A stretch of 64,000 nucleotides of DNA from a virus (Duplodnaviria > Caudoviricetes), in IMG/VR virus record IMGVR_UViG_2588253903_000005, positions 1 through 64,000 of that record, one strand, 5' to 3'. A program made the position numbers and the translations under genes. The notes beneath the pieces were generated by a model. That model was not told where the DNA came from, searched no databases, and saw nothing but the letters and a program-made list of their open reading frames with translations. Every line of letters starts with the position of its first letter. Within the stretch, counting starts at the first letter, position 1. Shown piece by piece: positions 2,792 through 58,896 of the stretch.

Positions 2792-3991
2792 ATGTCTGAG
2801 AAACGGAAAGACAATAAAGGACGAATCTTAAAGACAGGGGAGAGCCAGAGAAAAGACCTGATTTATCAGTACCGCTACACGGATATCCGCGGAAAGCGGC
2901 AGACCATTTATTCCTCTGATTTGAAGGAACTGCGGGAAAAGGAGAAGATGATCCAGAAGCAACTTGATGAAGGGATTGACTATGCTGCTGGAGAAGTTAC
3001 CGTTATTTCCCTCTTGGAACGCTATATCAGTTTGAAGCAGGGTGTACGCTACAATACCAAAGTTGGATACAATTTTGTGCTGAATCTGATTAAGAAAGAA
3101 GATTTCGGTTACCGTCAGATAAGAGATATTAAGGTATCGGATGCACAACAGTGGATTATGAAGCTGCATAATGACGGTAAAGGGTACAGCACTATCACAA
3201 GTGTCAGAGGCGTTGTAAAGCCTGCTTTTCAAATGGCATACAATGAGGATATAATCCGCAGGAATCCTTTTGATTTCAAGCTGGTTGATGTTGTTCCCAA
3301 CGATTCACAAAAACGGATTGCCATGACTGAAGAACAGCAGGAACTTTGGATGAGATTTATTCGGGAGGATAAAACTTACTGCAAGTATTATGATGAGTTT
3401 GTTGTCCTGCTGGGAACAGGAATGCGTGTCAGCGAGTTTTGTGGCTTGACAAAAAGTGATCTTGACTTTGAAAGCCGGAAAATCCGTGTAGATCATCAGC
3501 TTGTCCGGGAACGGGGCGGAAAGTATTATGTTGAGAAAACCAAAACCGAATGCGGATGCCGCTTTATCCCTATGACAGAGGAAGTCTATCGGAGTCTGAA
3601 AAAAATCCTTATCCGCCGCAAGAGCTTGAAGACAGAAATGATTGTTGACGGGTACAGCAACTTTCTTCTGTTGGACAAGGATGATAAACCGAAAGTAGCG
3701 TTGCATATCGAAAATGAGATGCGGTGGGCAATGAAGAAATACAAGAAGCTGCATCCGGATAAACCATTGCCACACATCACTCCTCATGTGTTCCGTCATA
3801 CGTTCTGTACCAACATGGCAAACGCAGGCATGGAAATTAAGACCTTACAGTATGTAATGGGACATTCCGATGTAGGTGTTACGCTGAATGTGTATACTCA
3901 TGCCAGCTATGATCGGGCAGCGGAGCAGATGGCGAAAATTTTAGACTTCAAAGAAACTGATATGCAAGGGAAACAGAGAAAATCAGGTTGA
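2792..3991 (+). CDS. int: Tyrosine integrase, Tn916 family
   Basis: MSEKRKDNKGRILKTGESQRKD arm-binding domain; GMRVSE, HVFRHTF, MGHSD, VY catalytic motifs. Confidence 0.95.
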   Translation: MSEKRKDNKGRILKTGESQRKDLIYQYRYTDIRGKRQTIYSSDLKELREKEKMIQKQLDEGIDYAAGEVTVISLLERYISLKQGVRYNTKVGYNFVLNLIKKEDFGYRQIRDIKVSDAQQWIMKLHNDGKGYSTITSVRGVVKPAFQMAYNEDIIRRNPFDFKLVDVVPNDSQKRIAMTEEQQELWMRFIREDKTYCKYYDEFVVLLGTGMRVSEFCGLTKSDLDFESRKIRVDHQLVRERGGKYYVEKTKTECGCRFIPMTEEVYRSLKKILIRRKSLKTEMIVDGYSNFLLLDKDDKPKVALHIENEMRWAMKKYKKLHPDKPLPHITPHVFRHTFCTNMANAGMEIKTLQYVMGHSDVGVTLNVYTHASYDRAAEQMAKILDFKETDMQGKQRKSG

Positions 3992-16245: not shown

Positions 16246-16311
16246 TCCAACCCCGGCATTTCTGCCGGACGCTCCCAACTTAATGGACTTTTTAGAGCCG
16301 TTGGGACGGCT
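16246..16311 (-). ncRNA. Pistol self-cleaving ribozyme
   Basis: AGCCG-UCCCAA-CGGCU-CUAAAAAG-UCCA-UUAA-GUUGGG-AGCG-UCCGGC-AGAAAU-GCCGGG-G^U-UGGA; P1, pseudoknot, P2, P3 and the GU site are all in canonical order. Confidence 0.92.
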
Positions 16312-23007: not shown

Positions 23008-23055
23008 TTCAGCCGAAAGGCTATATAAAAATTAAAGTTTAGGAGGGATTTGTCT

Positions 23056-23697
23056 ATGACGACTGAAACCATGACCGTGCATAAGGCTCTGGCAGAATTA
23101 AAGCTGCTTGACATCCGGATTGAGAAAGCAATCGCAGAAGGTGTTTACTGCGTTGCGAACAAACATTCAAACGATAAGATAGGCGGCGTTCCGCTTGATG
23201 ATTACATTAAAATCATGCAGGGCGGATATGACAAGGCAACTGACTTTATCAACCGTCAAACGGCAATAAAACGAGCAGTCACACTTTCCAATGCTGTAAC
23301 CAAAGTCGAAATTTCTGGCGTGGAATATACAAGAGCAGAAGCCATTTGGATGAAAAATCACGGAATGGAATTTTGCAAAACACTTATGAATGCTATGCGG
23401 AGACAATATGATAAGGCTCAAATGCAAATCAATCTGGAAAACGGAAAAGACCTTGAACAGAGGGCAGAGCAGTATGTAACCGCAATCTACGGGCAGAAAG
23501 AAGGAAAGACAAATACTGCTGACATCGAAAAGGTCAAGGCAGACTTTTTAAAATCCAACCAGTACGAACTGGTTGACCCGCTCCACGTCCTTGACAAGAT
23601 TGAAGATTTGGAGAAGAAAATCAATGATTTCATGGCAGAAGTTGACAGCTCATTATCGGTCAGCAACGCCTTAACCGAAATCACGATTGAATATTAA
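23056..23697 (+). CDS. Coiled-coil protein, probable partner of the downstream ncRNA
   Basis: TVHKALAELKLLDIRI; SNA(V/L)T motif twice; VDPL; from memory loosely like DIP1984/DUF6847 proteins (unverified). Confidence 0.85.
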   Translation: MTTETMTVHKALAELKLLDIRIEKAIAEGVYCVANKHSNDKIGGVPLDDYIKIMQGGYDKATDFINRQTAIKRAVTLSNAVTKVEISGVEYTRAEAIWMKNHGMEFCKTLMNAMRRQYDKAQMQINLENGKDLEQRAEQYVTAIYGQKEGKTNTADIEKVKADFLKSNQYELVDPLHVLDKIEDLEKKINDFMAEVDSSLSVSNALTEITIEY

Positions 23698-23715
23698 AAA
23701 TTAAATGAATTTTAT

Positions 23716-24107
23716 CCACTGTTTACCGAAAACCCCAAACTACAATTCATACGTCTTTTGCAGATACAGACATATGTAAAACAATAAAGAAATCTGCAAA
23801 CTTCAATGGACGAAGATAATATGAATTGGTCTTGAAAACCAAATTTGCATAAACAATGTGTCGGCGGTTCGATTCCGTCCAAGTCTTCGGACTTGTAGCT
23901 CAGTCGGGAGAGCGATTGTAAAAACAAAACGCACTGTAAAGATTAAAGAGTAAAGCTCAAATCTTAAAGCTGAAAGGTCAAAGTTTATTTTCTTCAAAGT
24001 TGAAAGAGCAAAGGTAAAAGACAAAAGTTTTACAAAATCCTTGGGAAATGTTTATTCGGGCTAATTGTAATTGCTGATGGGTTTAACACAAGGCTGGTAA
24101 ATGGTGG
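23716..24107 (+). ncRNA. ~390-nt structured ncRNA with permuted tRNA module, anticodon-arm mimic and heptamer array
   Basis: 13-bp 5'/3' helix (23716-23728 with 24095-24107), nested AAACCC/GGGTTT and TACAATT/AATTGTA helices; no coding ORF on +. Confidence 0.85.
23937..24029 (+). repeat. 12 tandem heptamers, consensus NAAAGNN (7 + 5, split by a 9-nt U-rich linker)
   Basis: TAAAGAT TAAAGAG TAAAGCT CAAATCT TAAAGCT GAAAGGT CAAAGTT [TATTTTCTT] CAAAGTT GAAAGAG CAAAGGT AAAAGAC AAAAGTT. Confidence 0.9.
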
Positions 24108-24157
24108 GTTATATGAATTATCGGCGGCAGCTTGTTGGTCTCGTTGCCGCCGGTTTT

Positions 24158-24249: not shown

Positions 24250-24319
24250 TTATGGGGATGGTAAAGTCTATGGGTTGATTCCAAAAATAAACAAACTTTA
24301 CAAAAAGCATTCCCATTAT

Positions 24320-24411
24320 GCCGACGTACCCAAACGGTTATAAGGGCGCAGTCTTGAAAACTGATGTGCCATGGAGAACATGGTCTGTGGGTTCAAATCC
24401 TACCGTCGGCG
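24320..24411 (+). tRNA. tRNA-Ser(UGA)
   Basis: GCCGACG/CGTCGGC acceptor, CTTGAAA loop, long variable arm, GGTTCAAATCC. Confidence 0.92.
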
Positions 24412-24756
24412 TTTAGTGTCGAACATTCGTACCATTTGGCACTCCTTTCACCCCGTAGCGGAATGCTGTTAAGAGCCTTCGCAAGGCTTGCGGGGATTCG
24501 TCAAGGAAAAGACATTAAAACCCGCTTGCCAGAGCGTATAAGTGGCGATACTAAAGCCCGGCTACTGCTTGAGGGCAATATAAAAAAGAGCAGCGTGTAG
24601 ATTGGCGGTAAGACGATGCGAATCTCAAATAACCGCATTCTGGATGATGCCCACGTCATTGTATAATTGGTGATGCATACTAGTTTGGACAGAATCCGAT
24701 TGTCAGTAAAGACATGCAAAATCCTATGCAGTCCTCATAGACATAAATTGGACGGT

Positions 24757-25431: not shown

Positions 25432-25701
25432 CGATCTAAAATCAATTTTAAGCGATTTTAACCCAACGCCTTAAATTTCCTCAATGAAACATAAAAGAGG
25501 GCGATTTGAGGCAAATAGGAGCGTTAGAGAGGTATTTCTGCTAAAAGCATACACCGTTGTTCAAGTCAACGGGGCAGATTTGGCGGTAACTTCGGAAATC
25601 GCTACATAAAATCCAACATGAGCGGACAAAAGTGAGAACAAAAACGCTTGAGGTATAAAAGTGAGTATTGCGTATTCTCACAAAGCAGTATTCGCTTTTA
25701 A

Positions 25702-25773
25702 GGCGATATAGCAAAACGGTTAAGGCGGCAGTCTGCAAAACTGCTATTATCAGTTCGATTCTGATTATCGCCT
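25702..25773 (+). tRNA. tRNA-Cys(GCA)
   Basis: GGCGATA/TATCGCC acceptor, GCAGT-CTGCAAA-ACTGC, T-arm; one D-stem mismatch. Confidence 0.9.
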
Positions 25774-25775
25774 TT

Positions 25776-25848
25776 AACAACGGGATAGCCCGACGGGGCG
25801 AAAAGCAAAACCGTGATTGCCTGTCCGTTGTTTCAACTAATATCACGG
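25776..25848 (+). ncRNA. Candidate pseudoknotted RNA
   Basis: Long stem 25776-25788/25821-25832; loop CCGTGAT complementary to ATCACGG at 25842. Confidence 0.45.
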
Positions 25849-26487: not shown

Positions 26488-26538
26488 CAATAGGCTAGGG
26501 TAGCTCCCAAAAAGCGTCCTCCAACGCCTGCCTATTGT
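26488..26538 (+). promoter_or_regulatory. Three-way-junction leader upstream of the replication initiator
   Basis: CAATAGGC/GCCTATTG, GGG-TAGCT-CCC and GCGT-CCTCCA-ACGC helices. Confidence 0.45.
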
Positions 26539-26583
26539 TTTTATAAATTTGGAGGATTAGAAAAATGGATTGGAGGTCATTTT

Positions 26584-33398: not shown

Positions 33399-34601
33399 AT
33401 GAGTGATTTAAAAATATTTACAGAAAACATAGAACCGCAGGCATTAAATCAGATTTACACGCTGATTAAGCAACCGGCATTTGCGGATTGCAAAGTGCGT
33501 ATCATGCCTGACGTACACGCCGGAGCTGGATGTGTTATCGGTTTTACTGCTGATTTGGGAGATAAGGTAATTCCAAACATCGTCGGAGTGGATATTGGCT
33601 GCGGCATGGAAACTGTAGAACTTGGCAACACAGACATAGACCTTGCAAAACTCGACGAGGTAATCAGAAAATATGTTCCGAATGGCAGAAATGTGCATGA
33701 AACAGAAGATAACTTTTCGGAAATCATCATCAATCAGCTTTATTGCGAAGACCGCCTAAAAAACGTGGATTGGTTGAAAAGAAGCTGCGGTACGCTTGGC
33801 GGAGGAAATCATTTTTGCGAAGTGGACATTGACGATGACGGAAATAAATACCTTGTCATTCATTCGGGAAGTCGGAACATTGGAAAGCAGGTTGCGGAAA
33901 TTTATCAGCAGATGGCGATTGACGATTTAAGCGGAGCGAACAGCCTTGAAGAAGAAACAAAGAAACTGATTGAAGATTACAAACGGACAGGCAGACACAA
34001 GGATATTCAGAGAGGGATTGCGGAGTTAAAACGGAAATTTCAGCCGAAAATTAGTGTGCCAAAAGAATTATCCTATCTGACAGGCGAACACAGGGAAATG
34101 TATCTGCACGACATGAAGTTGTGTCAGAAATTCGCAAGTGAAAATAGATACAGGATTGCAAAAGAAATATCTTATGGCATGGGCTGGGATATAGATAGAT
34201 TTTCAAATGGATTTGAAACAATCCACAACTACATTGAGCATGACACAAACATCGTCCGCAAGGGCGCAATATCGGCGAAAGAGGGCGAAACAGTCCTAAT
34301 TCCTATCAATATGCGTGACGGCTGTATTATCGGCAGGGGAAAAGGTAATGCAGACTGGAATTATTCAGCGCCGCATGGGGCAGGACGGATAATGAGCCGT
34401 AGCAAAGCAAAAGAAACGGTATCGCTGGAAGAATTTGAACAGTCCATGCAAGGAATTTATACAACATCTGTTAATCGGTCAACGATTGATGAAAGCCCTA
34501 TGGCATACAAGCCGATTGAGGAAATTGTAGCGAATATACAAGATACGGTTGAAATCATGAAGATTATCAAGCCGATTTATAATTTTAAGGCGAGTGAGTG
34601 A
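33399..34601 (+). CDS. rtcB: RNA ligase RtcB
   Basis: MPDVHAG, VGVDIGCG, GTLGGGNHF, HSGSR, HN, RKGA, HGAGR, DESPMAYK. Confidence 0.97.
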   Translation: MSDLKIFTENIEPQALNQIYTLIKQPAFADCKVRIMPDVHAGAGCVIGFTADLGDKVIPNIVGVDIGCGMETVELGNTDIDLAKLDEVIRKYVPNGRNVHETEDNFSEIIINQLYCEDRLKNVDWLKRSCGTLGGGNHFCEVDIDDDGNKYLVIHSGSRNIGKQVAEIYQQMAIDDLSGANSLEEETKKLIEDYKRTGRHKDIQRGIAELKRKFQPKISVPKELSYLTGEHREMYLHDMKLCQKFASENRYRIAKEISYGMGWDIDRFSNGFETIHNYIEHDTNIVRKGAISAKEGETVLIPINMRDGCIIGRGKGNADWNYSAPHGAGRIMSRSKAKETVSLEEFEQSMQGIYTTSVNRSTIDESPMAYKPIEEIVANIQDTVEIMKIIKPIYNFKASE

Positions 34602-58680: not shown

Positions 58681-58896
58681 TAGACAGGAGGATTCTTTCC
58701 ATACCTTTAATGAAAATTGGTGTATGGAATTTAGTTTATTATAAAGAAAAATACAGAAGAGCTGGCATACCTAACTATGAAGAAAAGCTTGTTAATGTTG
58801 GTTACATCTGGGGATAGGCTGACGAGCCGAAAAGTACAAGCCTTAGTACCTGCCCCGGTTTGACATAAGGCAGTTTGCGGAAAGGCGGTAAAGAGC

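Follow-up and report, generated by a model that had tools for sequence, protein, structure and literature searches.

Comparison of related loci indicates that a stem-loop carrying the anticodon loop of tRNA-Ser(UGA) is selectively maintained, yet optional, in a phage non-coding RNA, and its core hairpin is probably a selected mimic of that anticodon loop. The best explanation overall, which we advance tentatively, is that this maintained, optional mimic may serve as a decoy for a factor by which the loop of tRNA-Ser(UGA) is read. The stretch of DNA analysed (64,000 nt, hereafter the window) comes from an IMG/VR provirus record from mouse gut (75.6 kb, 82% complete).

The hairpin and its parent RNA

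The parent non-coding RNA is about 400 nt long, begins 18 bases past the ORF of a 215-aa protein and is located in the tRNA cluster of the phage; RtcB is encoded at 33483-34589. The features concerned are listed below.

23050-23697, + strand: gene of the 215-aa helical protein (phrog_1491), always 5' of the RNA
23715-23798, + strand: RAGATH-27 motif, the 5' part of the RNA (RF03100, 92.1 bits, cut-off 76.1)
23801-23815, + strand: small hairpin CTTC-AATGGAC-GAAG, between RAGATH-27 and the probable anticodon-loop mimic
23819-23850, + strand: full stem-loop, with a lower helix (23819-23825/23844-23850), a bulged A (23843) and the core hairpin on top
23826-23842, + strand: core hairpin, the probable anticodon-stem-loop mimic (5-bp stem TTGGT/ACCAA, loop CTTGAAA at 23831-23837)
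23852-23918, + strand: circularly permuted tRNA-like module (partial alignment to Rfam YrlA, RF02553)
23937-24029, + strand: AAAG heptad array, conserved in alignments A1 and A3
24030-24112, + strand: 3' domain of the parent RNA, in which GGTAAATGGTGG pairs with CCACTGTTTACC at the 5' end of the RNA
24319-24412, + strand: phage tRNA-Ser(UGA) called by ARAGORN, with the arm GCAGT-CTTGAAA-ACTGA (same loop as the mimic, other stem)

The first-pass annotation had described a Ser(UGA)-type anticodon arm at 23826-23842, and the sequence bears this out: TTGGT-CTTGAAA-ACCAA forms five Watson-Crick pairs around a 7-nt loop, C-U-UGA-A-A. When compared with real tRNA-Ser(UGA) genes, the core hairpin has the anticodon stem-loop of this tRNA, with the loop C32-U33-U34-G35-A36-A37-A38 on a 5-bp stem. 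The same heptamer is found at 24353-24359 of the phage tRNA-Ser(UGA), as had been claimed. In contrast to the anticodon stem-loop of a bacterial tRNA-Ser(UGA), with which it shares the CUUGAAA loop and the 5-bp stem, the hairpin is not inside a tRNA and has neither a D arm nor its own acceptor and T arm, and its stem is extended past a bulge by a 7-bp helix. ARAGORN and Rfam found four true tRNAs across the window and none at the hairpin, and no tRNA was called by ARAGORN within 23800-23930. The hairpin is not a tRNA by RF00005 or ARAGORN, the best result being a tRNA-Sec alignment of 24.6 bits against a cut-off of 47.

The heptamer CTTGAAA is itself common, with 30 copies across the 75.6-kb record. 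By chance, 0.02 copies per window would be enclosed by a perfect 5-bp stem, and first-order Markov resampling of the window produced such a hairpin 2 times in 100; the expectation rises to about 0.08 if the loop of any of the four phage tRNAs is allowed. Given the comparative sequence data presented below, a chance origin of the hairpin is untenable.

The parent RNA is a member of RAGATH-27, and the hairpin lies outside the RAGATH-27 model, 28 bases downstream of the end of the match. The catalogued motif covers the 5' 86 positions of the transcript and stops at 23798, whereas the hairpin, the tRNA mimic, the heptads and the 3' domain of the same transcript lie beyond it. A full-text literature search for RAGATH-27 returned no match. 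The small hairpin is kept with altered stems in relatives, namely in clade B (ATTCG/CGAAT; clades are defined below) and in Dulem virus 39. The fold of the full RNA in the window has a z-score of -4.2; full-length minimum free energy (MFE) folds are unreliable for this RNA, the hairpin appearing in that of the clade B locus L004 and not in that of the window. The hairpin is spanned uncut by the RNA-library contig X16 (23728-24012, 0 differences from the window) and with neither a break nor a difference by X15 (23620-24007), contigs that are uninformative on RNA ends or levels and come from a kind of library that can contain DNA. The RNA runs X16 and X18 cover the non-coding RNA only and not the flanking gene; since this coverage consists of contigs, it is no evidence of RNA ends or abundance.

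For the 215-aa protein, no Pfam family was found and a PDB profile search was empty. Its AlphaFold model is helical (pLDDT 83) and had no Foldseek match at E <= 0.001. The protein is widely labelled 'tail fiber protein' (phrog_1491, T5.085; 742 phage records), a PHROG label that we found unsupported and that looks inherited and wrong. A link to the T5 anti-defence island was also considered and dropped, as Rad is a different protein and ORF72/73 could not be tied to T5.085.

Elsewhere in the window, a pistol ribozyme and three int-alpA RNAs scored over the Rfam cut-offs (16246-16311, 25778-25848, 26488-26555 and 58807-58871). A T-arm-like hairpin, CGTTG-TTCAAGT-CAACG, was seen at 25555-25571, outside any called tRNA and near tRNA-Cys (25701-25774) and the int-alpA RNA at 25778-25848.

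Distribution and conservation of the hairpin

Searches anchored on the protein recovered 85 viral and 72 genomic loci, T5 included. The RAGATH-27 part, the heptads and the 3' domain are common to all of these loci, and the middle of the RNA is a variable slot. Viral and metagenome contigs were also searched with a pattern of the T loop, the start of the D arm and the start of the heptads, in which the hairpin was not required, and the permuted tRNA-like module was thereby recovered in three clades. Clade A (the window, L110 and L112, to which L131 was added later) has TTGGT-CTTGAAA-ACCAA; clade B (L004/L005, L109, L113 and L117; 58% protein identity) has GCAGA-CTTGAAA-TCTGT at the corresponding position; and clade C has the permuted module without a CTTGAAA hairpin. 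L155, from an Oscillospiraceae bin, carries ATACT-CTTGAAA-AGTAT 5' of a whole embedded tRNA-like element, one example that is biased since it was found via a search for the loop. Two scans of viral contigs for CTTGAAA plus heptads gave chance hits only, clade B excepted. L131, from a phage nearly identical to that of the window, is in a Lachnospiraceae genome bin, where the protein copy is 96% identical and the hairpin the same.

The hairpin is not carried throughout. L118 and L114, of clade A, have kept the tRNA mimic and are missing a segment of about 30 bases in which the hairpin would lie, and Dulem virus 39 (L001, PP511791; 79% protein identity), which was the sole relative in the phage collection searched and is without the insert, has neither the hairpin nor the mimic. 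These absences indicate that the hairpin is accessory and dispensable for the core role of the RNA. In the Dulem virus 39 record, three small 'hypothetical protein' CDSs on both strands (3020-3477) lie over the conserved RNA and are probably spurious calls.

The loop CUUGAAA is invariant, at 7/7 positions, in the nine sequences (8 distinct) from three lineages, while the core stem is 100% paired across these lineages and 5/5 of its pairs have changed on both sides. Conservation of the loop as an anticodon-type 7-mer, on which the first-pass annotation had staked its proposal, was thus upheld. Pairing continues into the bases on either side of the 5-bp stem, giving a full stem-loop of 12 bp with one bulged base on the 3' side. 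In the alignment of hairpin carriers, 93.8% of the cells of this 12-bp helix were paired and both-sided change was seen in 10 of 12 pairs, compared with 19-41% paired in slid controls. The annotation had also called the arm stand-alone, and this description is supported, since the covarying flanking helix is incompatible with a cloverleaf arm. Clades A and B each have zero variable columns over the 17 nt of the core hairpin, compared with 17% and 14% variable columns elsewhere (joint P ~0.003). As a separate observation, the clade B stem GCAGA/TCTGT (L004, 2269-2285) repeats the RAGATH-27 stem GCAGAT/ATCTGC (2194-2232), and the two stems might exchange pairing partners or have arisen by duplication.

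The bin of L131 contains a tRNA-Ser(UGA) arm, CTGGT-CTTGAAA-ACCAG, that is identical to the window hairpin in 15 of 17 bases, so that the hairpin is closer to this gene than to the tRNA-Ser(UGA) of the phage itself; the host assignment is tentative, as it rests on metagenome binning. A host-like stem holds as a rule in clade A and fails in L155, the stem of which is unlike the tRNA-Ser(UGA) of its bin, which leaves the loop alone as the general feature. We also rejected a tie between the hairpin and a phage tRNA-Ser(UGA) gene, because the presence of the two does not track: Dulem virus 39 has the gene and no hairpin, and a look through the stretches retrieved for L110 and L112 and, by pattern scan, through the 50-kb contig of L004 yielded none in these hairpin carriers.

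The tRNA-like module and the wider RNA family

The full stem-loop stops one base (23851) short of the closing helix of the module, and the core hairpin lies 9 bases upstream of this helix. From 5' to 3', the module consists of the closing helix, a 5-nt variable loop (GTGTC), a T arm, a TTCG-capped acceptor hairpin, TA, a D arm, G and the closing helix again. The first-pass annotation had placed the hairpin just 5' of a tRNA mimic lacking an anticodon loop, and alignment to the YrlA model confirmed this position. The closure ACAAT/ATTGT (23852-23856/23914-23918; CAGAA/TTCTG and GTAAAT/ATTTAC in other clades), together with the class-I type variable loop, indicates that the module has its own equivalent of the anticodon stem.

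Positions 23-85 of the YrlA model align to 23855-23917 at 36.3 bits, below the cut-off of 69, with model ends 1-22 and 86-114 unmatched in the window; the match in L004 (35.9 bits) is likewise below this gathering cut-off. The module has the order of T arm, closed acceptor and D arm that characterizes the tRNA-like domain of YrlA, a bacterial Y RNA (RF02553; PMC4201824), and is likewise joined to the remaining RNA via the position of the anticodon stem. In contrast to YrlA, no Ro-binding helix was matched, and no TROVE/Rsr gene (PF05731) was found in the 75.6-kb record, which is 82% complete. The absence of this gene indicates that the locus is not a Y RNA locus; with the sub-cut-off Rfam score, it led us to reject the Y RNA reading and to retain the topological likeness. 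The description of YrlA reports no separate anticodon-loop hairpin (PMC4201824).

A competing fold was seen in the window, where CGAAGAU (23811-23817) and GUCUUCG (23883-23889) form a perfect 7-bp pairing. This pairing would fold the hairpin, the linker and the T arm into a D-armless cloverleaf, in competition with the UUCG-capped acceptor hairpin, and the D-armless cloverleaf is what the local MFE of the window gives. In L004, RF00005 matches over the small hairpin, the mimic and the T arm (35.8 bits, cut-off 29). The idea that the hairpin is the anticodon arm of a hidden tRNA in normal order was nevertheless rejected as the principal fold, because the 7-bp pairing is weakened in relatives that have UGCG instead of UUCG and because the long hairpin covaries; the covarying flanking helix argues against both the RF00005 alignment of L004 and the D-armless cloverleaf of the window.

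A survey of the family for 5-bp hairpins with C-U-NNN-A-A loops covered 134 distinct RNA regions (44 kb). Sixteen distinct hairpins were found on the sense strand, compared with 1 on the antisense strand and 1.5 in shuffles, and coding controls (72.6 kb) gave 0-2. Of the 16, six form the anticodon arm within a complete tRNA-like element that occupies the slot, mostly in cyanobacterial chromosomal copies and with varying loops; two are a shortened RAGATH-27 hairpin; and the other eight are free-standing, with the triplets UGA, GAU, GUU, UAA and UUU. No free-standing T arms were seen in the same RNA family, which argues against random tRNA debris.

The free-standing hairpins in the same slot of L137/L138, L142, L132, L036 and L055-L057 have the loops CTGATAA, CTGTTAA, CTTAAAA and CTTTTAA; CTGATAA recurs in three distant lineages, and L142 has two such hairpins. 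Cyanobacterial chromosomal copies (L157, L159, L161, L164, L187 and L194-L196) hold in the slot a whole tRNA-like element in normal order, about 40-180 bases 3' of the protein gene, at loci beside tRNA arrays. The arm of this element is CATGA-N7-TCATG, with loops that depend on the species (TTTCCAG, TTGAAAA, CTATCAA, CTACCCA). In L144 (about 2252-2417), the slot holds tandem tRNA-like elements, an Asn-like one followed by a type-II Ser-like one, the latter with the arm CAGA-CGTGAAA-TCTG and a G at position 33. The near identity of this arm to the clade B hairpin points to an origin from captured tRNA genes, and the tandem is a possible intermediate toward the permuted module and the isolated hairpin.

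Possible functions of the hairpin

With the hairpin placed in the variable slot beside a mimic of the tRNA body, the RNA may be regarded as displaying parts of a tRNA. We infer that the hairpin would be read by a factor that normally reads the anticodon loop of tRNA-Ser(UGA), most likely a host nuclease that belongs to an anti-phage system and is directed at anticodon loops. The RNA, if abundant as this proposal supposes, would be a decoy or competitive substrate for the nuclease, and the phage tRNA-Ser genes with altered stems would meanwhile sustain translation. Such a putative role as decoy or competitor is possible, if doubtful. It is favoured because the tRNA cluster and RtcB fit a setting of tRNA conflict, because presence/absence and triplet variation are typical of arms-race modules, and because of two published findings: tRNA-Ser is cleaved by the HNH nuclease of a type I-A retron, a defence system (PMC12475279), and anticodon stem-loops on their own can be substrates of an immune nuclease (PMC13692257). 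The same retron, however, depletes all four tRNA-Ser isoacceptors (PMC12475279), which suggests that the anticodon is not read and counts against the decoy. The identical loop could, in addition, stem from separate captures of tRNA-Ser genes, which counts against it as well.

Alternatively, the hairpin may be all that is left of a tRNA-Ser(UGA)-like gene, once whole in an insertion-tolerant slot and now tolerated without a function. Whole tRNA-like elements in the same slot of other lineages agree with this reading, as do the Ser-like arm embedded in L144, the RF00005 match of L004 and the presence or absence of the hairpin among close relatives. Decay, however, should erode the loop at least as fast as the stem; the loop has remained invariant, the stems have changed at all pairs with pairing kept, within-clade variation is zero, and the flanks have become a covarying lower helix incompatible with a cloverleaf, so that we regard a functionless remnant as rather unlikely. 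A docking site for other RNA is improbable. YUNR is the U-turn motif of antisense recognition loops, and the C-U-U-G of the loop fits it, so that a U-turn loop would make UUGAA available for kissing over a few bases; the proposed partners are UUCAA, located in the small hairpin (23802-23806) or in a heptad strand of the same RNA, and UCA-containing mRNA sites, and loops of the same type recur across the RNA family. Against such docking, chance alone should supply a 5-nt complement in an A/U-rich RNA of 400 nt, the invariant loop permits no covariation test, and other triplets, such as the GAU of L137, lack an evident partner in the heptads of the RNA that carries them.

Two further readings would place the hairpin before the tRNA machinery. 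MiaA has as its determinant A36-A37-A38 in a 7-nt loop, and anticodon minihelices are MiaA substrates. The hairpin presents A36-A37-A38 on a helical stem and might be a landing pad by which MiaA, another tRNA-modifying enzyme or some other anticodon-loop binder is titrated or recruited, and the tRNA-like domains of YrlA are modified by tRNA enzymes (PMC4201824). The other triplets of the family would, however, need different enzymes, and this reading, too, seems improbable. It is highly improbable that the hairpin and the T/acceptor/D module together imitate a whole tRNA that enters the ribosome or binds SerRS. The single base between the long hairpin and the closing helix in the window could allow the two to stack, but the stacked arm would be 17 bp rather than 5, the spacing in clade B is 14 bases, the capped acceptor stem cannot be charged, and in L118 the module is present and the hairpin absent. 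The features recognized by SerRS are the long variable arm and the acceptor stem, not the anticodon; the SerRS-facing role suggested in the first-pass annotation is therefore unlikely.

Among the known kinds of element, the hairpin is a new variant of tRNA mimicry. It shares with the phage tRNAs that counter tRNA-cleaving defences (PMC10264068; bioRxiv 10.1101/2023.03.15.532788) the setting of a phage tRNA cluster and the anticodon loop as target. Those tRNAs are full and functional and replace the cleaved ones, whereas the hairpin is an isolated loop that cannot decode. The operator of E. coli thrS contains an anticodon-arm mimic that is bound by ThrRS in a cis-regulatory mRNA leader. Both that element and the present one are stand-alone hairpins with a long stem and a loop that copies an anticodon loop, and the thrS one is read by a tRNA-binding protein; unlike SerRS, however, ThrRS recognizes the anticodon, and the hairpin described here is in a non-coding RNA.

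For the family as a whole, the RAGATH-27 RNA and the phrog_1491 protein might form a widespread phage and bacterial particle in which the variable slot would be a display rack of interchangeable tRNA parts, countering or sensing host tRNA-targeting immune nucleases, a proposal that we consider unlikely as it stands. The parts would be tRNA-body mimics and isolated anticodon stem-loops with lineage-specific triplets, Ser UGA in the window and Ile, Asn, Leu and Lys elsewhere.

The anticodon loops of tRNAs are a major battleground between bacteria and phages, in which phages are known to respond with replacement tRNAs, repair enzymes and protein inhibitors. A copy of an anticodon loop, isolated and maintained by selection in an RNA that is represented in RNA libraries, would differ in kind from these responses. 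Since the pattern is wider than one phage, it offers a testable handle on what is done by an orphan RNA family that is found in gut phages, T5 and cyanobacterial chromosomes. Even if inert, the hairpin remains a record of tRNA genes being captured, permuted and pared down in a structured RNA; if the display-rack proposal is true, the family would represent an RNA-based counter-defence that evolves through loop swaps.
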